A program made the position numbers and the translations under genes. The notes beneath the pieces are model-generated. The model saw only the letters and a program-made list of their open reading frames with translations. It was not told the origin of the DNA and searched no databases. From a virus (lineage: Duplodnaviria; Heunggongvirae; Uroviricota; Caudoviricetes), in IMG/VR virus record IMGVR_UViG_3300045988_153358: a stretch of DNA of 48,302 bases; one strand, given 5' to 3'. Positions 2,684-48,302 of this stretch are shown piece after piece. Each line of letters opens with the position of its first letter. Position 1 is the first letter of the stretch.

Positions 2684-2852
2684 TATATATTTCTATAATT
2701 ATATAAATATATAGTTACAACATTCTATGCGCTTTTCTCATGGGCGCACGCATCAACCATGTTTGTCTGATATGCCGCCGCGCCCAAAAATCCTGAATTT
2801 ATTGGCTGGGATTTTCGTGCGCGGCGCCACACCAGACAAACAGATCAAATAT

Positions 2853-2928
2853 GGCCCCTTAGCTCAGTGGTTAGAGCAGGCGACTCATAATCGCACGGTC
2901 ATCGGTTCAAATCCGGTAGGGGCCACCA
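2853..2928 (+). tRNA. tRNA with anticodon CAT (Met elongator type, or Ile if lysidine-modified), includes 3-prime CCA
   Basis: cloverleaf folded by hand: 7-bp acceptor stem GGCCCCT/AGGGGCC, D-arm GCTC/GAGC, anticodon loop CTCATAA, T-arm ATCGG/CCGGT with TTCAAAT loop. Confidence 0.85.
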
Positions 2929-3236
2929 ATTCACTCTCACACATAAAGATAAGCGCGGTGGAGTTACTTCCTTCGTGCTCATCTTTATGCGTGCCTGGTG
3001 CGCATTTCGGGCGAACGTGGGGCTAAGTTACAGGCAGGGCCTGTTATCCGCAAAGGGGTAAAAGCTGGAGCGGCACGGAACTGTAGCCGTGTTACCAAAA
3101 CAGCGTTGTCGGGCGATATCCGGCACACAACAGGCAAGGGCATTAATCAGTCTGGTTAGTGCCCTTTTCGTTGCGTCTGCTGTAGAGCTGGCCAGCGTTA
3201 TGACTGCCGGAGATAAGCGCCGGAGGCACAACTAAC

Positions 3237-3824
3237 ATGGAGGCAATTGCATTGTTTAATCTGATTTATGCAGATCCCCCCTGGGAATACAAAGATAAGT
3301 GTAAGGATGGGAATCGTGGAGCTGGTTTTAAGTATCCAACGATGAAAGCTGAGGATATTGCTCGTATTCCTGTCTGGCAGCTTGCTAATCCTGAATCGTG
3401 TTTGTTGGCCATGTGGTGGGTTCCGACTCAGCCAGAAGAAGCGTTGCTGGTGGTGAAAGCATGGGGATTCAGGCTTATGACCATGAAGGGCTTCACATGG
3501 AACAAATGTGGTAGCCGACAACCAGATAAGCTGGTGATGGGGATGGGGCATATGACTCGTGCAAACAGTGAAGATTGCTTGTTTGCGGTAAAAGGCAAAT
3601 TGCCGACCCGCCTTGATGCGGGGATCATTCAGTCGTTTACATCGCCTCGTCTGGAGCATTCTCGGAAGCCTGATGTGGTTCGTGACAAGCTGGTAAGGCT
3701 GTTAGGTGATGTTCCTCGTATTGAGCTGTTTGCTCGCGGTGATTTACCTGATGGTTGGCATGGCTGGGGCAACCAGTGCAATGGAGGTATCCAGTTGCAT
3801 GATGCTCTCTGGCAAGTGGCATAG
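3237..3824 (+). CDS. MT-A70 family N6-adenine DNA methyltransferase
   Basis: DPPW catalytic motif (IYADPPWEY). Confidence 0.8.
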   Translation: MEAIALFNLIYADPPWEYKDKCKDGNRGAGFKYPTMKAEDIARIPVWQLANPESCLLAMWWVPTQPEEALLVVKAWGFRLMTMKGFTWNKCGSRQPDKLVMGMGHMTRANSEDCLFAVKGKLPTRLDAGIIQSFTSPRLEHSRKPDVVRDKLVRLLGDVPRIELFARGDLPDGWHGWGNQCNGGIQLHDALWQVA

Positions 3825-3936
3825 AATTATATAATTATAGATTTATATAAAAAGTGCTTTACAGGTGGGAAAAAATTTCCTATGGTTATACCCGAAACCG
3901 AGCGATACCCGCCCTGGTTAAACCGGAGATAACCCG
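3821..3936 (+). promoter_or_regulatory. promoter-leader cassette copy 1: AT-rich upstream element, TTTACA, 17-nt spacer, TATGGT, conserved leader with GGAG ribosome-binding site
   Basis: 118/119 identical to 35286-35404 and about 100 nt identical to 44816-44918. Confidence 0.7.
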
Positions 3937-4206
3937 ATGAAAGTACAAGACCGTGAAGTAGTAAAAAACCTCCTGCAATACCTGACCTCAAAAAACCTGA
4001 CGGGCAGCGTTGAGTTCCGTGAAGCGTTAAAACATTTCAACGTCACTACGGTTTATCGTTGGGAAAACAAACATTCTGAAAGACCGTATGTGGTGGATGT
4101 TTTTGCGCCTGATATTGAGTGCGGTTTTGAGCGCCATTCATTCAAAAAGAAACATTCCGCTGATGTTTTTTGTGAGGTTGTATGTGCGGCAGGAGATGAT
4201 GAGTGA
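3937..4206 (+). CDS. hypothetical protein (89 aa), first gene after cassette copy 1
   Basis: ORF track; conserved leader and ribosome-binding site. Confidence 0.6.
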   Translation: MKVQDREVVKNLLQYLTSKNLTGSVEFREALKHFNVTTVYRWENKHSERPYVVDVFAPDIECGFERHSFKKKHSADVFCEVVCAAGDDE

Positions 4207-4403
4207 TGCGTATTTCCTTCAAACGTGCGACTGAGCAGCAACGCAAAGAGTTCCTGGCTGATGATGTTGCGGCCGTTTATGACCTCATGAAAGAGGTTGT
4301 GGAATCAGGAAACTACACGGCGGCAAAGATGCTTAAACTGCAATTCTTGCTGGGCGACCTGAAATACAAATCCGAAGTTGTCGCCGGACGACGCGAGCAT
4401 TAA
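4203..4403 (+). CDS. hypothetical protein (66 aa)
   Basis: ORF track; start overlaps upstream stop. Confidence 0.5.
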   Translation: MMRISFKRATEQQRKEFLADDVAAVYDLMKEVVESGNYTAAKMLKLQFLLGDLKYKSEVVAGRREH

Positions 4404-4426
4404 ACCGTAACGATAACGAACAACGA

Positions 4427-4452
4427 GCCTCGGCAATTGCCGGGGCTTTTTT
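4427..4452 (+). terminator. Rho-independent terminator
   Basis: GCCTCGGC/GCCGGGGC stem then TTTTTT. Confidence 0.6.
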
Positions 4453-5291: not shown

Positions 5292-5299
5292 CTCTTACA

Positions 5300-5325
5300 G
5301 CCTCGCGGTGTCGCGGGGCTTTTTA
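5300..5325 (+). terminator. Rho-independent terminator
   Basis: GCCTCGCG/CGCGGGGC stem followed by TTTTT. Confidence 0.6.
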
Positions 5326-5985: not shown

Positions 5986-6609
5986 ATGACAAAACATCTT
6001 AATGTGGTTTCTTTACCACTTTCTGTGTTGATTGGTTATGAAAAGAACGCTCGCACACACTCCGTGGAGCAGGTAGATCAGATTGTTGCCAGCATACAGG
6101 AGTACGGATGGACTAATCCGATCCTGATAGACGAGAACAACGTTGTAATTGCTGGTCATGGTCGAATTGCTGCGGCCACTCAGTTGGGGATGGATGATGT
6201 TCCCTGCATTGTTCTGGCTGGGCTAACGGAGAATCAGAAGAAGGCATATCGTCTGGCCGACAACCGTATTCCGCTGAATGCTGGTTGGGATGAAGAGTTG
6301 TTAAGCGCGGAGCTTGCAGATCTTGCGGCCGATGATTTTGCTCTGGACTCAATTGGTTTTACTCAGCGCGAACTGGATAACTTATTGAGTGCGGCGGTCT
6401 ACGATGACACAGAGGGTATGGATATCCCATTTGAGAAGGATGAGGCCAAATCAGGCGTAAAAGTTCAGTACCTGTCATTTGGAGGTCATAAAATCCCGGC
6501 AACGGATGAGGAAGCGGATCGTTTTGACTGCGCGGTGTCTCGTTATGTTGATGATAATGGCAGCTATATCGGATTTGTATCCGCATTGCTGGCTGGGGAG
6601 GTGTGCTGA
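5986..6609 (+). CDS. ParB-like nuclease domain protein (copy 1)
   Basis: ParB N-terminal domain motifs (IAGHGR, KKAYRLADN); paralog of 9275-9865. Confidence 0.75.
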   Translation: MTKHLNVVSLPLSVLIGYEKNARTHSVEQVDQIVASIQEYGWTNPILIDENNVVIAGHGRIAAATQLGMDDVPCIVLAGLTENQKKAYRLADNRIPLNAGWDEELLSAELADLAADDFALDSIGFTQRELDNLLSAAVYDDTEGMDIPFEKDEAKSGVKVQYLSFGGHKIPATDEEADRFDCAVSRYVDDNGSYIGFVSALLAGEVC

Positions 6610-7982
6610 TGCTTCACCTGAATTACGACATAACGCACCTACGCGGCGCGGAATATAACCCGCGTTTTATCGGTGAGGATGATCTTGCGAGGCTGGCGGA
6701 AAGCGTCAGGGAGCTGGGGCTTGTGAAGCCATTGATAGTGCGCGGCGATTTGCTGGTGGCGGGACACCAAAGGACGAAGGCGCTACGTAAGTTGGGAATA
6801 ACGCGTGCTGCGGTGTATGTGTTGCCCTGTGAAACGACGGTATACGACGAAGTACGGTTTAACCAACTGCATAACGGAACGGATTTTGATAGCGGAGATG
6901 AGCGTTGCAGGGTGTCCGGTCTGGAAGATAAGCATGGTTTTGTTCAGGTATCGGCAAGCCAGATCTCAGGCAATATGCGCGCGAAAATGGCATATGTTCG
7001 AAAGAACATAGCGGAACTGGTTATCAAGTATGGTCCGTGGGGTGGTTGTGTTGCTACTCAGTCTGGTGAGGTTATTCACTGTGCTCAGTATGCATTAGCA
7101 GCGAAAATGACGCGCACACCGCTAACGGTGTTTGTGATCCCTGATGTTGAGAAGGAAAAATACCAAAGTTATCTGAATAAAACTTATGGTGTATTTGAGT
7201 ATTCTCATCTGGAGAAAACAACATACATCCAGACGTATGCGCAGCTTATGCGGTTGCGTAATGGTGGCAGCCTGAAATCAAACCTGTATGAGTCGTTGAT
7301 CCTCCCGATCATTGCCAAGACGCCAAGAGGAATTGATTTTGGTTCGGGGCAGGGAGACTACGCGCGAATGCTCAGGGCAAAGGGATATAACCTGCATGAT
7401 CTCGAGCTTTTCCGCCGTAAGGGCGCTGGAAACACTCTGGATAGGACCGCAACAAACCGGATGATTGATACGCTGGTGGACGACTTAAAAACGCGAGGGC
7501 GTTACGACTACGTGATTTGCGATAGCGTTTTGAACTCGGTCGATAGTGTCGAGGCTGAATGGTCTGTTCTGACGGTTCTGAAAGGCCTGTGTAAAGCTGG
7601 TGGGTCAATATTCTTTTCTGGTCGTAGCCGTGGAGAGCTGGAAACAGTCCTGAAGCAAACACAAGCGGCGAGTTCCAAAAGCCGGCTTTATTTTATTGAT
7701 CATAACGGTTTTACCGCGTTGTACCGGAAGGGGCACTGGTTTTACCAGAAGTTTCACTCTGATGATGAAGTGAAGCAGTTGTGTCGTGTACATGGTTTCA
7801 GGATTAAGCGGTCAATATTCAACTGTAAGAGCTGGTATTTGCACGTCATTAACGATGATTCCCTTAGTTGGGCGAGTCTGGAGAAAGCTGTTCGTTTTGA
7901 GTTTGAGTTGCCGTTGCCTGGTGGTTCAACAATCGGACGATCTGATGATGTGCTGGCGGCTTTCCGGCCGCTGATTAAGTAG
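6609..7982 (+). CDS. ParB-like N-terminal domain fused to a class I SAM-dependent methyltransferase-like domain
   Basis: N-terminal LVAGHQR ParB-like motif; downstream DFGSGQG, DYVICDSVL and LCKAGGSIFFS resemble methyltransferase motifs I-III; no DPPY/NPPY motif. Confidence 0.6.
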   Translation: MLHLNYDITHLRGAEYNPRFIGEDDLARLAESVRELGLVKPLIVRGDLLVAGHQRTKALRKLGITRAAVYVLPCETTVYDEVRFNQLHNGTDFDSGDERCRVSGLEDKHGFVQVSASQISGNMRAKMAYVRKNIAELVIKYGPWGGCVATQSGEVIHCAQYALAAKMTRTPLTVFVIPDVEKEKYQSYLNKTYGVFEYSHLEKTTYIQTYAQLMRLRNGGSLKSNLYESLILPIIAKTPRGIDFGSGQGDYARMLRAKGYNLHDLELFRRKGAGNTLDRTATNRMIDTLVDDLKTRGRYDYVICDSVLNSVDSVEAEWSVLTVLKGLCKAGGSIFFSGRSRGELETVLKQTQAASSKSRLYFIDHNGFTALYRKGHWFYQKFHSDDEVKQLCRVHGFRIKRSIFNCKSWYLHVINDDSLSWASLEKAVRFEFELPLPGGSTIGRSDDVLAAFRPLIK

Positions 7983-33400: not shown

Positions 33401-33772
33401 GTTCGCCCTTGCAGCGAGCTAAAGCTCGCGCCGGTTCGAGTCGCTACGCTCAAATATACCTCCTCCGGCACTTGCCGGAGGCATGGAGCAGCCTGATCAT
33501 CCTTTTCGAAACGGCACGTTTCGAACTATACAAAATCAATTTATATAAGGCCGAAATAAGGCCTACGGCCGGGCTTTGCAGGAGGAAGGGGCGAGCCTTA
33601 TCAATAAACGTCGATAAATACGCACACAGTAGCCATCAGAACGCGATAAAATGTAAGAAACATCATTTCCTATTAGACATAGAAAACTTGTCTTATACGC
33701 AATGTAGTAAATTTCTATTGCCACATAGGAAAAGATTTCCTACCATCGTAGATATAATAAATGGAGATGGTT

Positions 33773-34060
33773 ATGGATAAAGATACTGTTTTAAAAATGT
33801 TGAATCCGGCTTGTTTAAAAAAAGCGGATGAATGGGAATCTCCTACATGTGGAGAAGTTCGGGCAGTCATTGGCCTGACCGGAATGAGCGGCTCGCAGTT
33901 AGCCAAAAAACTAGGCTTAAAAGATAGTCGCAATGTTCGCAACTGGCAGATGTTAAAGGAGTCCACATCCAGATCCAGCATTCCGTATGCAGCCTGGGCG
34001 CTGCTGTGTTACTTCGCTGGGTTAGGGTTAATCTTCATTGATAACAAAACAGATGTTTGA
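33773..34060 (+). CDS. hypothetical HTH protein with C-terminal transmembrane helix (95 aa)
   Basis: HTH-like GMSGSQLAKKLGL, hydrophobic IPYAAWALLCYFAGLGLIFI; GGAG Shine-Dalgarno. Confidence 0.5.
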   Translation: MDKDTVLKMLNPACLKKADEWESPTCGEVRAVIGLTGMSGSQLAKKLGLKDSRNVRNWQMLKESTSRSSIPYAAWALLCYFAGLGLIFIDNKTDV

Positions 34061-35280: not shown

Positions 35281-35285
35281 CGCTC

Positions 35286-35401
35286 ATAGAATTATATAAT
35301 TATAGATTTATATAAAAAGTGCTTTACAGGTGGGAAAAAATTTCCTAAGGTTATACCCGAAACCGAGCGATACCCGCCCTGGTTAAACCGGAGATAACCC
35401 G
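35286..35401 (+). promoter_or_regulatory. promoter-leader cassette copy 2
   Basis: 118/119 identical to 3821-3939; the single mismatch is in the candidate -10 (TAAGGT versus TATGGT). Confidence 0.7.
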
Positions 35402-35782
35402 ATGAGCATGATTAAAATCCGCAAAAACGCTTTCCTTAAAATTCAAACTATCCTGGCTGGTTCTGTTGGCGTGATTTGCCGTTCTTCTTCAAGCCGCATC
35501 GATGACGGCTACGATGATGAGTATCGTTTGTCCTCGTGCGATGAGGCTTTAACCTGGCTGAAGGAGAATCAGGAACGTGCCCAGGTATATCTGGAAACAG
35601 AGAACGGCAATCAGATGCTCCGTATTAGCGGTCGTTATGGATTTGAAACCACATTCATGGCCTATTTTAATCAGGCTTACTTTGACAAGGAGTTGGCCTG
35701 GTACACTGATCGCATGAGCAAAAGCGAGCCAGCCCCGATTACACCGCCGAACGATAAACCATTTTTATTCCTCGTTAAGTAA
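35402..35782 (+). CDS. hypothetical protein (126 aa)
   Basis: ORF track; conserved leader and ribosome-binding site. Confidence 0.6.
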   Translation: MSMIKIRKNAFLKIQTILAGSVGVICRSSSSRIDDGYDDEYRLSSCDEALTWLKENQERAQVYLETENGNQMLRISGRYGFETTFMAYFNQAYFDKELAWYTDRMSKSEPAPITPPNDKPFLFLVK

Positions 35783-36412: not shown

Positions 36413-36673
36413 ATGACGGGTTACGAATTGAAATTATGGCGTCGTGGGATGAACTGGACGCAGGAGCGAGCCGCCGAAGAGTTTGGGATATCGTTGGCTA
36501 CATATAAGCGATATGAGAAGGGTGAGCCGCCGAGGGTCATTGAGATGGCCATTCGCGTTCTGTCGTTTGACGATATGGTTAAGGATCTTTCACACCTTGA
36601 TAAAGATGTGATTCTGTTAAGGCTGCAAACCCTTGTATGGGAAAAGGTTAAAGTGTCGTCAGAATTGGAATAA
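36413..36673 (+). CDS. HTH (XRE-type) transcriptional regulator
   Basis: 86 aa; HTH WTQERAAEEFGISLATYKRYEKGE; divergent from the membrane protein. Confidence 0.65.
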   Translation: MTGYELKLWRRGMNWTQERAAEEFGISLATYKRYEKGEPPRVIEMAIRVLSFDDMVKDLSHLDKDVILLRLQTLVWEKVKVSSELE

Positions 36674-37494: not shown

Positions 37495-38694
37495 TTATGG
37501 TCTGCTCTTCTGTGCCAGCTTATCAGCACATGTTTTTATCAGATCCTGTAGTGTCCTGGCTGGCAGGTTTGCATCCAGTACGCTGAGTATGCTGTTGTGA
37601 TCTGCTTGGTCGACTACTTTGCCTGTCGGTGGTAGTAGCTTGAGCTGAGGATTCAGGTTTTCGTCAAAGCTGATAAGTGCTCTGGCGTTTCTGAGCAGAT
37701 CAAGAAGTAAGGCTGATATCACATTTTCCTGAGTCATTGCTGACAGATTTAGCGCCGCTTTGGTTTTCCCTGTTGCCTTGTCAAACTCCTTGATTAGTTC
37801 CTTCCTGTAGTTCGGTTCCGTTAATAGCCGATTATGCTCTGTTGCCGCGCGGATAATCGTTTTTTCCTGGTACAGTCGTTTAGCCAGATCACGCTCGTAC
37901 TGTGTTTTTAACACGCTGCTGATAGCGTTAAAGGCTTCAATGTAGGCCAGCTTGATATCTTTCACGCCTGGACCGTCGATACTTTCCATGAGCAAGGTAA
38001 ATCCGTCTTTTGTCATGCGATAGATTGTTATTTCGCGGTCGCTTCCTTCCAGCGGTCGTTGCTCTTTAAAGAAATGACGTGCCGCAGCTGTGCGAGGAAT
38101 GCGTAACGCATCGATGGCCATAACGATGGAATTGTTTGTGGTGCTGAATGCCTGGGCAACATCGGCTGAGGTTGTGAGTGGCTCGTTGTTGCACACCTTA
38201 ATGTAAAACATCGGTTTGGCGTTGAGCGTATCGACAACCTCACGAGCATTGTTTGGCGAGACGGTTACGGTCGCGGCCGTTTGTGTGTTCTGGCTGAAAT
38301 AGCAGTCTTCCAGCCGTTCGAACACATCCCAAGCCTGATCGGTTTCAAGCATTTTGGCGTGACGTGCAGCCCCGCGTTCTGTCCAGAGAATGAGGGAGCG
38401 GGCTTTCGGGGAAATTTGTAACCCTCTTAAAGATGGTTGCACATTTTGTGAGTTACTTAAAGTAACCCGCAAATTTTGTGAGTGACTTAAAGTCACTCGC
38501 AAAGTTTTTAACTCATCGCCAGCCACTTTGAAAAAATGCTTTCCTTCAATAAAGCGGTTTGCGTTACGTGAGTAATTTTTTTTGATGTTATCAACGTCTG
38601 TGCCGTATAGCTTTGCCAGTAGTTCAGTAGTGATAACGGGGATCTGGTTATGCAGGATAGGCTGTAGGGTGTTAACGGTCGGAAGCGTTTTCAT
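37495..38694 (-). CDS. antirepressor-like protein (ORF6N/KilA-type N-terminus, Rha-like C-terminal part)
   Basis: ITTELLAKLYGTDVDNIKKNYSRNANRF motif; downstream of a small overlapping ORF and structured RNA region. Confidence 0.65.
   Translation of the reverse strand: MKTLPTVNTLQPILHNQIPVITTELLAKLYGTDVDNIKKNYSRNANRFIEGKHFFKVAGDELKTLRVTLSHSQNLRVTLSNSQNVQPSLRGLQISPKARSLILWTERGAARHAKMLETDQAWDVFERLEDCYFSQNTQTAATVTVSPNNAREVVDTLNAKPMFYIKVCNNEPLTTSADVAQAFSTTNNSIVMAIDALRIPRTAAARHFFKEQRPLEGSDREITIYRMTKDGFTLLMESIDGPGVKDIKLAYIEAFNAISSVLKTQYERDLAKRLYQEKTIIRAATEHNRLLTEPNYRKELIKEFDKATGKTKAALNLSAMTQENVISALLLDLLRNARALISFDENLNPQLKLLPPTGKVVDQADHNSILSVLDANLPARTLQDLIKTCADKLAQKSRP
38443..38502. repeat. two tandem 30-bp dyad-symmetric repeats inside the antirepressor gene
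   Basis: ATTTTGTGAGTTACTTAAAGTAACCCGCAA then ATTTTGTGAGTGACTTAAAGTCACTCGCAA; arms GTTAC/GTAAC versus GTGAC/GTCAC. Confidence 0.8.
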
Positions 38695-38882: not shown

Positions 38883-39046
38883 TGTGATGATTCCCTTAAA
38901 GGTTAAGGATACTCACCACCGTCAGGTTCCAATCATTGGGTGGTGAGACGTGCAGGGTTGGAACTACCGGACACAATGACGAACCGGCGAGTCTTACGAC
39001 TCCCCCGCACGCCCCACCATAATTTGGGTGTAGCAGTGCTTTACGC

Positions 39047-39150
39047 ATAAAAAAACCGCTAACGCGGTATGCGCCATTGTGTCTACGGGGTTCCAATCCC
39101 GACCGTAGATTTTGCTACGGCTCGGAAAGTGTCCACCAATGGCGCATTCA
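39047..39150 (-). ncRNA. candidate c4-like antisense sRNA (5-prime end not determined)
   Basis: minus-strand hairpin ACCGC-GUUA-GCGGU plus U7 at 39049-39068; stem CCGUAG/CUACGG; GAUUGGAACC element repeated in the leader at 38925-38936 and complementary to 38954-38964. Confidence 0.35.
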
Positions 39151-39638
39151 TGTCAATACGGCGGGATTTTAACAGAGACAACCACATAGCGTGGGTTTAT
39201 TGGTAGGCAGAAACAAAAAAACCGCCCTATTGAGGACGGTTCTTTCGTGCTGATCGGATTCGCGGTCCTTTCAGCATAACGTCGTTGTATAAACAACCAC
39301 GCAAGCACAAGCAGCAAGTTAATTTTACCCAAAAGGTAATAATAGTCCACTATTATGCTTCAAAAAATTGTGGTTCTTGTTGTGCCTGCAAACTCACAGA
39401 TTGTGGGTAGGTTACTGATTTTGTGAAAATAAACGAGTTTTTTCGTTTAATTTCTTTCCTATTACTAATCTTAAAATAATCGTAAAATACCTGTGGACCT
39501 TCCCGCCGATTCGCACCCGGGCACCGACTTTAGGGGAGGATTCTCCGTTGCCGTACATGCAAGCACAAGCAGCCGTGCTTGCTCTCGCGTTGTTTTCGTC
39601 GGTGGGGATGCCGTGAAACGGCCTGTAAGGGCCATACA

Positions 39639-39761
39639 ATGAAAAAATACTGTATGTGTATTTTTATCGTTGTTACTGGGGCTTTGTTTACGCCACATGG
39701 GGAGGGTTGGAAGATTACTGATAACGCTCTGAATGTGACGATAAACATTAGCAGCAAGTAG
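39639..39761 (+). CDS. possible small hydrophobic peptide (40 aa)
   Basis: AAGGG Shine-Dalgarno 8 nt upstream; translation MKKYCMCIFIVVTGALFTPHGEGWKITDNALNVTINISSK; strong terminator follows. Confidence 0.3.
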   Translation: MKKYCMCIFIVVTGALFTPHGEGWKITDNALNVTINISSK

Positions 39762-39766
39762 CGATT

Positions 39767-39790
39767 AGGCCCCTTCGGGGGCCTTTTTTA
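39767..39790 (+). terminator. Rho-independent terminator with UUCG tetraloop
   Basis: AGGCCCC-TTCG-GGGGCCT followed by TTTTT. Confidence 0.75.
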
Positions 39791-40010: not shown

Positions 40011-40259
40011 TTACTTCTGGTTGTATTGAGCCTTGAGTAACTCAAAAGATTTTGTCAGCACTTCTTTCAATGACATATCCATTGAGCTGGCGAACGTTTT
40101 GTACTCGCGTTTAAATTCAGGGTCGACGTTAAACGCCATTTGTGCCCCACCTGATTTGGTTCTGGTTGGCGTTTCAGTCGGGTCGAAAACCTGCGGTTGT
40201 TCGATCGATGGCGGTACGCCTTTGCTGTTCTTCTTTGGTGGTTTTGATGGTCCGGCCAT
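40011..40259 (-). CDS. ParG-like ribbon-helix-helix partition/centromere-binding protein
   Basis: 82 aa; disordered basic N-terminus, C-terminal RHH-like segment; adjacent to ParA. Confidence 0.55.
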   Translation of the reverse strand: MAGPSKPPKKNSKGVPPSIEQPQVFDPTETPTRTKSGGAQMAFNVDPEFKREYKTFASSMDMSLKEVLTKSFELLKAQYNQK

Positions 40260-40302
40260 GTGTATCCCCTCTTATATAAATCTATAAATCTATAATTATA
40301 TA
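40260..40302. promoter_or_regulatory. AT-rich repeat motif between parA stop and parG start
   Basis: tandem TATAAATC units; same motif family as other intergenic sites. Confidence 0.5.
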
Positions 40303-40956
40303 TTACGCGGCAGTAGTCAGAGCCTCAAGCTGGTTGATAATCCCCTGAATAACGTCGTCTGCCTTTTTGCGTGGCGCAACGTATGAGCATTCAATGAGGC
40401 TTAAGCCCTTATCCTGAGCTTTGCTCAGAGCTGGCTTGTGGGGAATGTACTTATCGACAACAAAGTATGGCGTATTAGCCAGGTACTCTTGGGCTTCAAT
40501 GTAGTCGGCTTCGTTTTCAGCCGCGCCTGAGAACACCATGCAAATTTTCTTGATTGGCACACCCTTTTTAACGATGCCGTGAGCTGTGTTAACGGTGGTT
40601 TCTAGGTCATCGGTAGAGAATCTGGTTGGCAAAATAACCATATCCAGAAATTCAGAGAGCTTCGGTACTGATTCAGATGCGTAGGCACCGCCATCGACGA
40701 TAACCAGGTCGTATACTTCTGATTCGATGATTTTCTGGACTTGTGATGGCGTGCCGCACGGCTGCGCCGCGATTGCAGGTTCGATATTGTTGGCCATTCT
40801 GCGTTGTACCCAACGCGTTACCGTTCCGTTAAGCACATCCATATCGATCAGGCATACATTCCAGCCGGCCTTTGCATAAGCAACTGCTAAAGCACGGGCA
40901 ATTGTTGATTTGGTTACGCCGCCTTTTCCGTTGAAAATACCTACAGAGATAGTCAT
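40303..40956 (-). CDS. parA: ParA/MinD-type partition ATPase
   Basis: deviant Walker A GIFNGKGGVTKST; start at second ATG chosen because of GGAG Shine-Dalgarno. Confidence 0.8.
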   Translation of the reverse strand: MTISVGIFNGKGGVTKSTIARALAVAYAKAGWNVCLIDMDVLNGTVTRWVQRRMANNIEPAIAAQPCGTPSQVQKIIESEVYDLVIVDGGAYASESVPKLSEFLDMVILPTRFSTDDLETTVNTAHGIVKKGVPIKKICMVFSGAAENEADYIEAQEYLANTPYFVVDKYIPHKPALSKAQDKGLSLIECSYVAPRKKADDVIQGIINQLEALTTAA

Positions 40957-40974
40957 TTGTCGAGACTCCATGTG

Positions 40975-41080
40975 TTTGGTTATATAATTCTATAAATCTA
41001 TATTTATAGAACGAGGTAAGCATAACCAACTTTTTGGCGGATGAAAAGCGTTTTATATAATTATATAAATCTATAATCAT
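40975..41080. promoter_or_regulatory. parA upstream region with two further copies of the AT-rich motif
   Basis: 40981-41010 and 41053-41077 carry TATATAATT...TATAAATCTATA-type elements. Confidence 0.5.
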
Positions 41081-41573: not shown

Positions 41574-42230
41574 TCATAACCAGTTGACAACACTAACTAC
41601 GCGGCCAAGAACTTTATAACGCTTAAATTCCTCGTTATTCAGATGCTTAGTGTTCATTTCAGCATCCCTTTCGGTTGACAGCATAACAGCATTGTCACCC
41701 GGTATGACTCTACAGTGCCTCAAAACAACCAGGCCATTTCTGTCTTCAAGGGCATAGATCCCCTCATGAATCTCTGTATCGTCTGTATTAATCAGGACTT
41801 GGGAGCCAGGGGATATTGTTGGTGACATTAACTCATCGTTGCTCTGGAGAACTGACAGAGACGATGGGTTGATGTTCTTGCTTCGTAGAATCTCCTGTTC
41901 TATCGCCAGCACTGGCTTTTCTCCGGCGTGCGATGCTATGTCATTTTTTATAGCTACAAGCCCAGGAATAACAGGAGCGTTAGTATTCTGGGGTGGGAAC
42001 GGGTTATCTGTTAAGCACGCGATATAAGGCGCTGATGCTTTCAGGGCGTGCGCGATTTTCTTGATGGCAGGTATAGATGGTTGTCTTAATCCGGCCTCAT
42101 AGTTCTGCAAGGTGCTTAAGCCTATTCCAGTGACTTGCTGGAGATCTCCGGCAGTCATGCCGGATTGTTTCCGTAGAGTCTGAATGCGCAGACCTATTTC
42201 TTTCTTGATGTTCTCGTCGTTGCTTTTCAT
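41574..42230 (-). CDS. CI-like repressor (N-terminal HTH, C-terminal S24/LexA-like peptidase domain)
   Basis: HTH GMTAGDLQQVTGIGLSTLQNYEAG; S24-like C-terminal region; divergent from cro-like gene. Confidence 0.8.
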   Translation of the reverse strand: MKSNDENIKKEIGLRIQTLRKQSGMTAGDLQQVTGIGLSTLQNYEAGLRQPSIPAIKKIAHALKASAPYIACLTDNPFPPQNTNAPVIPGLVAIKNDIASHAGEKPVLAIEQEILRSKNINPSSLSVLQSNDELMSPTISPGSQVLINTDDTEIHEGIYALEDRNGLVVLRHCRVIPGDNAVMLSTERDAEMNTKHLNNEEFKRYKVLGRVVSVVNWL

Positions 42231-42404
42231 GTCTCATCAATCGTGAATGGTGGGTTATTTATACATTACCACATTTAGTGGTTTTCACATGGTAAGACGA
42301 GAGGTGGACCACAAATAGAAGGTTATTTTTTGTTTCGCCCATTGAAAAACTCACGATATGTGGTTTTAATACCACATATCGTGGTTTTGACTGGAGTTCG
42401 TTAA
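42231..42404. promoter_or_regulatory. cI-cro intergenic switch with three CCAC-N5-GTGG operator-like sites
   Basis: CCACATTTAGTGG 42269-42281, TCACGATATGTGG 42351-42363, CCACATATCGTGG 42372-42384. Confidence 0.6.
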
Positions 42405-44377: not shown

Positions 44378-44755
44378 GTGAGACGCGATCTGGATAGCTT
44401 GTTTGAGCTATGGGCGCTGTGGGTGCGCAATGGCTGCAACGCCCGTAGCGGTTTCGCGTCGATGTTAGAAATGATGATGGTTACGCGCTGCCAGTTTACC
44501 GGAGGGGGCGGCGCACCAAATGACTCACTGGAAACCAGTATAGAGGGAGCGGTGACGGCCCTCACGGTAGTTGATGAGACTGCGGCGCTGGTTGTCCGAA
44601 TTGAATACGGGGCGTGGGAGATTCGGGGCCTCGACATAAATGCACCGCATATTGATAAAGCCCACGCCCTTTCTCTTAGCCTCAGACAGTATCGCCGGAA
44701 GCTGGCAAAAGCCAGGGCGTATGTTGTCGACTATTTGAAAAAGCGAAGAGAGTAA
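44378..44755 (+). CDS. putative late-gene regulator, antitermination Q-like (PF06530-type), GTG start
   Basis: LFELWALWVRNG and downstream pattern resemble recalled Q-like family; lies directly upstream of cassette copy 3. Confidence 0.45.
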   Translation: MRRDLDSLFELWALWVRNGCNARSGFASMLEMMMVTRCQFTGGGGAPNDSLETSIEGAVTALTVVDETAALVVRIEYGAWEIRGLDINAPHIDKAHALSLSLRQYRRKLAKARAYVVDYLKKRRE

Positions 44756-44807
44756 AAGTGTCATTTTGAGCTGTTTTGATGGTGTGTAGACATCGGGAAC
44801 ATCGAAA

Positions 44808-44924
44808 ATCTATAAATATATAATTATAGATTTATATAAAAAGTGCTTTACAGGTGGGAAAAAATTTCCTATGGTTATACCCGAAACCGAGCGATACCCG
44901 CCCTGGTTAAACCGGAGAAATCTG
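44808..44924 (+). promoter_or_regulatory. promoter-leader cassette copy 3
   Basis: about 100 nt identical to copies 1 and 2, diverging only in the last 6-7 nt before the ATG. Confidence 0.7.
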
Positions 44925-45992
44925 ATGAATAAACAAGTAATTATTTCTGACTGGATCAACAACCCTAACAGCCTGTTAAGCACTGATACTGGCTACCTAT
45001 TACGCCATGTTAATGGTCGTATGGTCAAAAGCGATGAGCACGAAACCTTTTTCTTTGTTGAAGACGATGGGCGTATCTATGAGGATGGTTACTCTTATGA
45101 AGCCCAAACTGGTTGTATCCCTGCGGAGCTGGTGGATGTAACAGAAGATCTGCGCAAAGCATGGCTTGAACAGCAGCAGCGCGGAGATGATTACGTAAAC
45201 ACCTATCAGGAACGCCAGAACGCGCGTCTTGCCCGATATATTGCTCGTGCAGAAAAAGCCAGAAAAGAAGGTGCGGTAGCGCATAAGCGAGCGCATGACC
45301 TGTTGGATGTGATCCCGTTAGGCCAGCCGATTTTAGTTGACCATTATAGCGCGAAAGGCCATCGCCGCCGTTTGTCTAAAGCTGATGCGTTATTCAGAAA
45401 AGCGTTTGTTGAATGCGAAAGTAAAGCATCACACTACGAGAGCAAAGCCGCAGGTGTTGGTCGTAATGGAATTTCGTCTGATGATCCTGATGCGCTATTT
45501 AAGTTGCTTCGTAAGCTGCAAGGCTGCATGAAGTCACACGTCAAAATGAAGGCCGCAAATAAGGCCATTCGCAAATACAAAAAAGACCAAATACAGCAGC
45601 TTTCTGCATTAATCGATCTCAGGTTTACAGAAAGCGAAGCCAAAGAGTTACTGGCCGGAGATTTCTGTGGGCGCATCGGATTCCCTTCATACGCACTGAG
45701 CAACAATAACGCCGAAATCAAACGACTACAGAGCCGTATTAAGGAGCTTGAATCGGTCAAGTCTGTAACAGGAGCACAGCGCGAAGAATACGACGGCTTT
45801 TCTATGGAGATAGATCCAGAGGATAACCGCATCCTGTTTTATTTCCCTGGCAAACCAGAGGCAAACATTCGTTCGCTGCTTAAATCACGCGCCTTTAAGT
45901 GGAGTCCAACCCGTAATGCATGGGTTCGCAAGATTACTCCAAACGCCCTGGCTGATGCCCGATATCTGAAAGAATCGCTATTGAAAGCCTGA
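44925..45992 (+). CDS. hypothetical protein (355 aa), first gene after cassette copy 3
   Basis: ATG at 44925 at the same leader position as the other copies; the track ORF start at 44871 lies inside the promoter. Confidence 0.6.
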   Translation: MNKQVIISDWINNPNSLLSTDTGYLLRHVNGRMVKSDEHETFFFVEDDGRIYEDGYSYEAQTGCIPAELVDVTEDLRKAWLEQQQRGDDYVNTYQERQNARLARYIARAEKARKEGAVAHKRAHDLLDVIPLGQPILVDHYSAKGHRRRLSKADALFRKAFVECESKASHYESKAAGVGRNGISSDDPDALFKLLRKLQGCMKSHVKMKAANKAIRKYKKDQIQQLSALIDLRFTESEAKELLAGDFCGRIGFPSYALSNNNAEIKRLQSRIKELESVKSVTGAQREEYDGFSMEIDPEDNRILFYFPGKPEANIRSLLKSRAFKWSPTRNAWVRKITPNALADARYLKESLLKA

Positions 45993-46069
45993 CAGTAAGC
46001 CTACGGCGGGATGTCTCCCGCCGTATATAGAATTATATATTTATATAAATGTATAAGGACGCCTCGACA

Positions 46070-46351
46070 ATGAAACGCAAAATTATTAACCCCCAAGATG
46101 TGATTAATTTCCTGACCGATCACCCATGTTCAAAAGTGGACGTAATCGCGGAGCACATTGGTGTGTCGCAGAACTCTATGCGTTGCAGACTGAGAAGCAT
46201 GGTTGCCGAAGGACAGATAACAACCAGGAAAATAAATGGTTGCCTGTACTACTCCGCTAAACCGGAATTGCCATTTGGCATGAATCCTAACTCCATGTTG
46301 TTTAACACCTTATTAGCCAAAGTTAAGCCGTTGAGAGGGGCTGTGGCATGA
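46070..46351 (+). CDS. hypothetical protein (93 aa), possible winged-helix DNA-binding
   Basis: internal ATG with AAGGA upstream; track start 46049 lies in the AT-rich motif. Confidence 0.45.
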   Translation: MKRKIINPQDVINFLTDHPCSKVDVIAEHIGVSQNSMRCRLRSMVAEGQITTRKINGCLYYSAKPELPFGMNPNSMLFNTLLAKVKPLRGAVA

Positions 46352-47953: not shown

Positions 47954-48302
47954 ATGGCGTTAACACACCGCGAACTCTGTCAGATTGCGTACAAGTTCCT
48001 TAAGCGCAACGGGTTCAAGGTTTGCTTTCATGACCGCTTTATAGCTGTAACCAGTACCGGAGAACAGCCAGATGCTATGGGATTCAGAAATTCAGCATCA
48101 TGCTTGATAGAGGCGAAGTGTTCTCGTGCTGACTTGTTGGCAGATAGAAAAAAGCGTTTCCGTAAAAATCCCTCACTTGGCATGGGCGACTGGCGATTCT
48201 TTATTAGTGAGCCGGAAATTATTTCAGTTGAGGATTTACCTCCCGGCTGGGGATTACTTCACGTTGTTAACGGAAGAGTACGGAAAGTACATGGATGGCC
48301 CA
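47954..48302 (+). CDS. 5-prime portion of wrap-around ORF (171 aa in total, continues at 2-286)
   Basis: ATG at 47954; no stop before window end; PD-x12-EAK motif. Confidence 0.45.
   Translation, partial: MALTHRELCQIAYKFLKRNGFKVCFHDRFIAVTSTGEQPDAMGFRNSASCLIEAKCSRADLLADRKKRFRKNPSLGMGDWRFFISEPEIISVEDLPPGWGLLHVVNGRVRKVHGWP

Follow-up and report, generated by a model that had tools for sequence, protein, structure and literature searches.

A probable promoter-operator-leader cassette repeated in a 48-kb enterobacterial phage-plasmid and its candidate Aca-type regulator

The DNA analysed here (the window), a stretch of 48,302 nucleotides (nt) from a virus of the Caudoviricetes deposited as IMG/VR record IMGVR_UViG_3300045988_153358, carries three nearly identical cassettes which precede three different genes. 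Each is laid out in the same order: iterons, a sigma-70-like promoter with an inverted repeat in its spacer, a leader hairpin, GGAG and an ATG start codon. Bases 1-119 recur exactly at 48184-48302, and the window is therefore a circular replicon of 48,183 base pairs (bp) written with an overlap. The element is present in 74 complete Escherichia coli genomes, nearly always on plasmids of ~48 kb and in a median of three copies. The reference strain ATCC 25922 is among them, its plasmid NZ_CP009073.1 being a member of this family. Equivalents of the cassette occur in relatives from metagenomes and from Salmonella and Serratia. The window is also ~98% identical to three Yersinia pestis phages, whose annotation is uninformative.

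A repeat search across the whole window returned one family of three 121-nt copies, at 3820-3940, 35285-35405 (99%) and 44809-44929 (90% ungapped); with gaps the pairwise identities are 99.2, 94.2 and 93.3%. A repeat of such length and identity cannot have arisen by chance. An earlier sequence-only reading of the window had described three near-identical 119-bp elements, each closed by a GGAG ribosome-binding site and an ATG and each placed before an unrelated gene. This description stands: the elements are ~120 nt long and 99% and 90-95% identical, all three end in GGAG, eight nt and ATG, and the genes which start there (at 3937, 35402 and 44925) specify unrelated products of 89, 126 and 355 amino acids (aa), respectively. 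The copies, and the parts of the first of them, are as follows.

3821-3939, + strand: cassette copy 1, from the iterons to the ATG; drives the 89-aa gene (3937-4206) and a 66-aa gene (4203-4403)
35286-35404, + strand: cassette copy 2; drives the 126-aa gene (35402-35782); -10 hexamer TAAGGT
44806-44927, + strand: cassette copy 3, immediately 3' of a Q-like gene; drives the 355-aa DUF3560 gene (44925-45992)
3821-3852, + strand: iteron array of copy 1, four 8-bp units (ATAGAATT ATATAATT ATAGATTT ATATAAAA); equivalents at 35286-35317 and 44806-44841
3858-3886, + strand: sigma-70-like promoter of copy 1, TTTACA-17-TATGGT; equivalents at 35323-35351 and 44847-44875
3866-3882, unstranded: 17-bp inverted repeat of copy 1, a putative operator (TGGGAAAAAATTTCCTA); equivalents at 35331-35347 and 44855-44871
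3896-3919, + strand: leader hairpin of copy 1, with a lower stem of 4-5 bp, a bulge, an upper stem of 3 bp and a 5-nt loop; equivalents at 35361-35384 and 44885-44908
3925-3939, + strand: translation start block of copy 1 (GGAG, 8-nt spacer, ATG); (G)GAGATA is kept in most clades

The cargo immediately behind a cassette differs among near-identical genomes. Phage vB_YpM_41 (1738-1959, against 3961-4201 of the window) has lost most of the 89-aa gene, and a shorter first gene remains.

The promoter TTTACA-17-TATGGT was detected by a consensus scan at 3858-3886 and 44847-44875, as had been proposed, with the qualification that the single difference of copy 2 falls in its -10 hexamer. For copy 1 the transcript is predicted to start near 3893-3895. 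We aligned 24 cassettes drawn from the window, a Salmonella Weltevreden plasmid (~88% identical), a Serratia marcescens plasmid (~70%) and metagenomic relatives, and the positions of both hexamers are unchanged in every one of them (24/24).

All cassettes also contain an inverted repeat which spans the promoter spacer and the first two bases of the -10 hexamer, and which the sequence-only reading did not mention. It reads TAGGAAA-N3-TTTCCTA in the window and TAGGA-N7-TCCTA in the relatives. Over the 24 cassettes it is 94.6% symmetric and displays symmetric double changes, mirrored positions switching from A-T to C-G; in one relative the sequence has become TAGGTC-N5-GACCTA. The repeat occurs exactly four times in each of the window, the Salmonella plasmid and the Serratia plasmid, namely in the three cassettes and in the promoter of a small gene coding for 95 aa.

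33718-33746, + strand: fourth promoter, TTGCCA-17-TACCAT, with a perfect inverted repeat (TAGGAAAAGATTTCCTA, 33726-33742) in its spacer
33773-34060, + strand: 95-aa helix-turn-helix (HTH) protein, proposed here as an Aca-type autorepressor which reads the inverted repeat

This fourth promoter lies directly 5' of the 95-aa gene, just past the replication region, and possesses neither iterons nor a hairpin. Salmonella and Serratia show this arrangement as well (L002, 29090; L003, 27003), while in the clade of L020 the gene stands behind a full cassette. Profile searches related the 95-aa protein to the HTH domain of AcrIF24 (E 1.6e-7) and to Aca3 (E 2.4e-3). Based upon the repeat in its own promoter, we propose that the gene may be autoregulated.

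The distribution of the 95-aa protein follows that of the repeat. Homologs are encoded in all of the repeat-bearing lineages (the window, L001, L002/L018, L003, L020-23, L027 and L028), and the inverted repeat, the hairpin and the gene are found together in about ten lineages. In L006/7, L024, L025 and L029 the homologs, the repeat and the cassettes are all missing, and these loci retain the genes for the 125-aa Q-like protein, ParA, the ParG-like protein and the CI-like protein. A second HTH gene, at 36413-36673 near copy 2, was considered as the reader of the repeat and ruled out, being confined to the E. coli and Salmonella lineages.

The hairpin begins 2-3 nt past the predicted transcript start. 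A common fold is shared by E. coli (AACCG/GCG...CGC/UGGUU), Serratia (GGCC/GGC...GCC/GGCC), Salmonella and the other clades. Over the 24 cassettes the helix is paired in 97% of the alignment cells, and four of its seven pairs have changed on both sides; when the 3' partners were slid by 1-3 columns as a control, pairing of the whole structure fell to 23-44%. Since the helix includes G-U pairs, RNA is a better fit than a site in DNA. With a covariance model of the leader we obtained 29 matches in 400 kb of related loci, all of them within cassettes and two of them new, and zero matches in those loci which lack the 95-aa gene. No Rfam family matched the leader at E values up to 1. On reading, the leader contains no boxA-like sequence, and its single interrupted hairpin of 24 nt differs both from the boxA plus boxB of a nut site and from a put site, which has two stem-loops of ~70 nt. 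The direct repeats ATACCCG/AAACCGAG, which the earlier reading had pointed out in the leader, are real in the window but are not kept in Salmonella or Serratia; the conserved feature is the hairpin. We had also considered these direct repeats as a Q21-style binding element, a reading rejected because they are not conserved in those two genera.

The remaining part of the cassette had been described as an AT-rich upstream region. It is present, but is in fact a specific array of 8-bp iterons which stops 5 nt short of the -35 hexamer. A three-unit iteron pattern gave 19 matches at eight sites in the window and none in 100 shuffles. Several of these sites belong to a partition (par) locus, a link which the earlier reading missed.

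40270-40301, 40986-41009 and 41051-41074 (span 40270-41074), - strand: par-locus iteron arrays, in the gap between parA and the 82-aa gene and on the flanks of the parA promoter
40303-40971, - strand: small ParA ATPase of type Ib (222 aa), matching the CbiA, ParA and MipZ domains
40011-40259, - strand: 82-aa gene directly 3' of parA, proposed from gene position and sequence pattern to encode a ParG/omega-like centromere-binding protein which reads the iterons
2681-2712, - strand: dispersed iteron array, upstream of a tRNA gene
46027-46054: dispersed iteron array, upstream of a MarR-like gene (46049-46351)

Four clade-specific types of iteron exist: ATAG/ATAT in E. coli and Salmonella, AAAG/AAAT/CTTT in Serratia and L027, GATATAAA/TATATC in L008 and L020-23, and a further variant in L028. 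Each type is common to the par promoter and the cassettes, and the two change together by clade, which points to a protein of the par locus as the reader. The 82-aa protein, with its flexible basic N-terminus, resembles ParG and omega in size, position and pattern; a search for its homologs returned only unnamed proteins. A 48-nt piece of the cassette, which comprises the iterons, the -35 and some of the spacer, is present, 100% identical and cut by IS26, at 4001-4048 of an unrelated conjugative resistance plasmid (NZ_CP037908.1). There it adjoins a higBA-like pair and a related pair of parA and small gene with the same type of iteron.

The 24 cassettes retain the same order and spacing of all parts though their sequences fall to 63-73% identity. 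The cassettes of E. coli and Salmonella share 84-89% identity, against 54-73% for the 300 nt of coding sequence downstream and 50-66% for the 200 nt upstream; the proteins encoded behind them share 45-68% of their amino acids. This is the opposite of a leader which is lost while the genes behind it are kept. The copies are closer within a genome than across orthologous positions, and have therefore undergone concerted evolution, either by gene conversion or by the tracking of a shared factor. The earlier suggestions that conservation extends far beyond a core promoter, and that a sequence-specific factor or an RNA structure is at work, are borne out in that both a conserved operator-like repeat and a conserved hairpin are indicated. 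Coordinated control of the dispersed units survives as an idea, with the amendment that the likely factor is the product of another gene than the one first supposed.

We believe, with moderate confidence, that the cassette is a promoter-operator-leader module, and that its three copies and the promoter of the 95-aa gene make up a four-promoter regulon under an Aca-type autorepressor, the 95-aa protein, with a second input from a partition protein. The binding, repression, timing and gene functions which follow are put forward on the strength of the anatomy, homology, co-occurrence and covariation observed above. A dimer of the 95-aa protein would bind the 17-bp repeat between -35 and -10, and would so block RNA polymerase at the three cassettes and at its own promoter (33718-33746). 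In a newly entered cell all four promoters would be active while the repressor is still missing; later they would be shut down and held low in the plasmid-prophage state. The hairpin at the 5' end of the leader might provide control at the RNA level by the same repressor, as with Aca1 and Aca2, or might stabilize the mRNA. Through the iterons the 82-aa partition protein would exert a second repressing input on the cassettes, and each cassette might serve as an extra partition site. Strong terminators past copies 1 and 3, taken with a Q-like protein, suggest that antitermination is required for read-through into the lysis and structural genes. Because the promoters would fire before repressor exists, candidates for roles in establishment or anti-defence would be found immediately after the cassettes: the 89/66-aa pair, the 126-aa gene and the DUF3560 gene. 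Genes of the DUF3560 kind are widespread on plasmids and occur near orphan methyltransferases.

Several points weigh against this proposal. The transcript start, binding of the repeat, repression and RNA binding are all predictions from the sequence, and the label "anti-defence" is attached to the cassette genes solely by association. The cassette-driven proteins matched no known anti-CRISPR, anti-defence or other solved protein and no function in Pfam, NCBIfam or PHROG, and searches of PDB sequences with the 126-aa, 89-aa and 355-aa proteins gave no match. Copies 1 and 3 open the lysis and structural region, an atypical place for acr operons, and could first of all be late promoters. The co-occurrence is drawn from ~14 related loci, some of which are covered in part. 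The leader structure was derived from the same sequences on which it was assessed, and the independent events are few (~4 clades), so that support for the hairpin is good but not conclusive; its sequence is moreover unlike that of the DNA operator. For the 82-aa protein the hints of a ribbon-helix-helix fold are weak (SvtR, 2kel, E 0.21, and one HicB match). Finally, as the 95-aa gene of the E. coli clade has a promoter without hairpin and iterons, the three modules need not share one protein.

The alternative which fares best concerns the gene immediately before copy 3, together with the terminators which lie in the units begun by copies 1 and 3.

44378-44755, + strand: gene for a 125-aa candidate antiterminator of the Q21/Q82 type, which closes the early rightward operon
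4425-4448, + strand: strong intrinsic terminator, ~530 nt past the promoter of copy 1; a second at 5299-5320
1031-1058: terminator in the unit begun by copy 3

Pfam Phage_antitermQ is matched by nine of the 112 distant relatives of the 125-aa protein, and a full-length profile alignment relates it to E. coli QuuD (E 3.5e-4), which makes it a plausible distant Q-type antiterminator. Its full-length match to the NCBIfam PA0613 family is weak and does not reach the cutoff (E 2.5e-4). The region of the Q gene of VP882, a Vibrio phage-plasmid, was examined as a source of a relative and offered none: VP882 Q belongs to Pfam PF06323, and the adjacent open reading frame (ORF) is unrelated. Literature searches on PA0613, on the vB_YpM phages and on phage-plasmids with anti-CRISPR-associated genes brought up nothing relevant.

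One might therefore suppose that the cassettes are Q-dependent late promoters, comparable to lambda PR' with its qut site, at which the 125-aa protein binds the spacer element, loads onto RNA polymerase paused in the leader and carries it past the terminators into the lysis and structural genes. In keeping with this, the 125-aa gene closes the early operon with copy 3 straight after it, and known Q-binding elements are located between -35 and -10 (PMC6606751, PMC9371919). The strong terminator-like hairpins with T runs at 4425-4448, 5299-5320 and 1031-1058 also speak for it. We nevertheless regard this explanation as unlikely. It is the 95-aa gene with which the spacer repeat and the cassette are associated; L006/7, L024, L025 and L029 have the Q-like gene and neither element. 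In the clade of L020-23 and L028 the cassettes, two to four in number, are confined to the accessory region which separates repA from parA, and no cassette occurs in the up to 10 kb covered 3' of the Q-like gene. A palindrome would not be expected of an oriented Q-loading element, and no hexamer of the -10 type, with A at position 2 and T at position 6, is conserved among the aligned leaders in the initially transcribed region. Resemblance to the Q families is itself weak (probability 37%), the protein having no Pfam match of its own. The sequence-only reading had looked to the gene at 44378-44755 for the factor which acts on the cassettes; since the gene is kept in lineages without cassette, repeat or leader motif, it is probably not that factor, and by the same comparison of loci the 125-aa protein is an unlikely reader of the conserved cassette. 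The two explanations are compatible, in that Q could act on transcripts begun at copies 1 and 3, and in the window genome may do so.

A bolder combination, which we mention as a doubtful possibility, would make the cassette a dual-input node. Together, the partition-complex protein and the Aca-type repressor would govern the establishment or anti-defence genes as well as both promoters through which Q-dependent late transcription is entered; the segregation machinery would directly silence lytic units, the eight iteron sites would double as dispersed centromeres, and the hairpin would give the repressor a second hold, at the RNA level.

That the cassettes are ordinary lysogeny-repressed promoters, with the spacer repeat as operator of the CI-like repressor (41574-42230) or of some other general phage repressor, appears very improbable. 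A repeat located in the spacer is a classical repressor site, a plasmid-prophage has to silence units which run into late genes, and a CI-like repressor with HTH and S24 peptidase domains is encoded. However, CI-like homologs are present in all of the lineages, including those without the repeat, and the repeat is not found in the stretch which separates the CI-like gene from the early operon, where a different palindrome lies instead (42351-42384). The latter has arms of 13-14 bp (TCACGATATGTGG...CCACATATCGTG) and T runs on both strands, stands between the CI-like gene and the first early gene, and could be the CI operator or a leader terminator.

Also very improbable is that near-identity reflects recent duplication and gene conversion of a convenient strong "mobile promoter" without a dedicated factor, the hairpin being a mere 5' stabilizer: the copies do group by genome and not by position (93-99% within E. 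coli, 84-89% to any Salmonella copy), and a fragment does accompany the par/higBA module in the unrelated conjugative plasmid where IS26 cuts it, but at 63-73% identity the architecture is kept, with the repeat still symmetric and the hairpin still paired, the cassette co-occurs strictly with one HTH gene and is better conserved than its flanks, and its iteron type shifts jointly with the par locus.

Some other features of the replicon and its relatives deserve mention. A tRNA gene (2853-2925, + strand; tRNA-Met in a related phage record) lies within the mechanically called ORF 2727-3026, which for this reason is probably no gene. Rfam gathering-score matches to C4 antisense RNA (38936-39024, - strand), isrK (39049-39121, - strand) and ryfA (39493-39789, + strand) sit upstream of a 399-aa Rha-domain gene (37495-38694, - strand), and the region looks like an immI (C4/antirepressor) module of the P1 type. 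A ParB/Srx-domain gene is followed by one for a 459-aa methyltransferase (annotation from the Salmonella relative; window 5986-7982). With the MT-A70 methylase (3237-3824) and the DUF3560 gene they form a set which recalls plasmid establishment regions. A related phage-plasmid contig (L008, 12070-13980) has ~1.9 kb without a called gene and with no Rfam family above threshold. In a relative without cassettes (L006) the motif ATTTGAAGTA/AATTGAAGT stands upstream of several genes (1648, 9427 and 12533), and may be the equivalent control site of that lineage. Assignment of the window to the pSLy3 phage-plasmid group was abandoned because pSLy3 belongs to the SSU5 supergroup.

If the proposed regulon is correct, a common and unstudied family of ~48-kb E. 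coli phage-plasmids acquires a testable regulatory map, and Aca-type control, so far a matter of a single anti-CRISPR operon, comes to cover four promoters spread over a genome. Candidates for establishment or anti-defence, by their association with it, would be the 126-aa gene, the 89/66-aa pair, the DUF3560 gene and a 96-aa gene. The iterons suggest that the control of phage promoters receives input from plasmid partition proteins.

Partition systems of type Ib, such as omega of pSM19035 and ParG of TP228, consist of a small ParA followed by a small gene, as here. They likewise place arrays of short repeats beside the -35 hexamers of par and of further promoters on the replicon, and the tetramer boxes of TP228 parH, with their 4-bp spacers, resemble the 8-bp periodicity of the iterons. 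Unlike these systems, the window has one array between parA and the small gene, the fold of the 82-aa protein is weakly indicated as ribbon-helix-helix, and the iteron arrays are paired with a second, unrelated operator in the same promoter.

With the lambdoid Q/AlpA cassettes the window shares a candidate of Q21/AlpA-like fold directly 5' of copy 3, a conserved element in the spacer and strong terminators before the late genes. Unlike them, its spacer element tracks another gene, no conserved -10-like pause element is visible, genes begin right after the leader, and several lineages which bear the Q-like gene are without cassettes.

The suggestion that the cassettes represent an undescribed regulatory system is overstated, for the layout matches that of Aca-controlled anti-defence operons (PMC9638941; bioRxiv 10.64898/2026.07.27.740549): an inverted repeat in the promoter, a hairpin just past the start, a small HTH autorepressor and several co-regulated operons. 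AcrIF24 is a dimer which represses TTGCAT-N17-TATAGT via a 17-bp inverted repeat between -35 and -10 (PMC9638941). The acrIF23-acrIF24 promoter, from a Pseudomonas prophage, resembles the cassette in having a 17-bp TAG...CTA repeat within a 17-bp spacer, and in both cases the gene for the regulator lies behind such a promoter. Unlike AcrIF24, the 95-aa protein is a stand-alone HTH protein which has neither the head nor the wing domain of the anti-CRISPR; the promoters number four as against one, no known anti-CRISPR gene lies downstream, and the host is an enterobacterial phage-plasmid.

In the operons of Aca1, Aca2, Aca10 and Aca12 an operator in the promoter is followed by the start 10-15 nt on and directly thereafter by an RNA motif; RNA binding has been shown for Aca1, with earlier work cited for Aca2, and a single Aca protein controls several operons (bioRxiv 10.64898/2026.07.27.740549). 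The cassette agrees with these in that its operator overlaps the promoter, its predicted start is 10-15 nt downstream of the operator, and its leader has, right after the start, a conserved lower stem, a small bulge and a covarying upper stem of 3 bp; here too one regulator is predicted for several operons. In contrast, the target promoters are dispersed over a 48-kb genome and not restricted to neighbouring operons, the hairpin is unlike the operator, and RNA binding by the 95-aa protein is a proposal. The whole 119-bp unit is also near-identical between copies, and partition-type iterons are added to it. What is new with respect to the known systems is thus an AcrIF24-like HTH protein which stands alone and has four predicted target promoters dispersed over a phage-plasmid, and near-identical full-length cassettes which have acquired iterons of the partition type.

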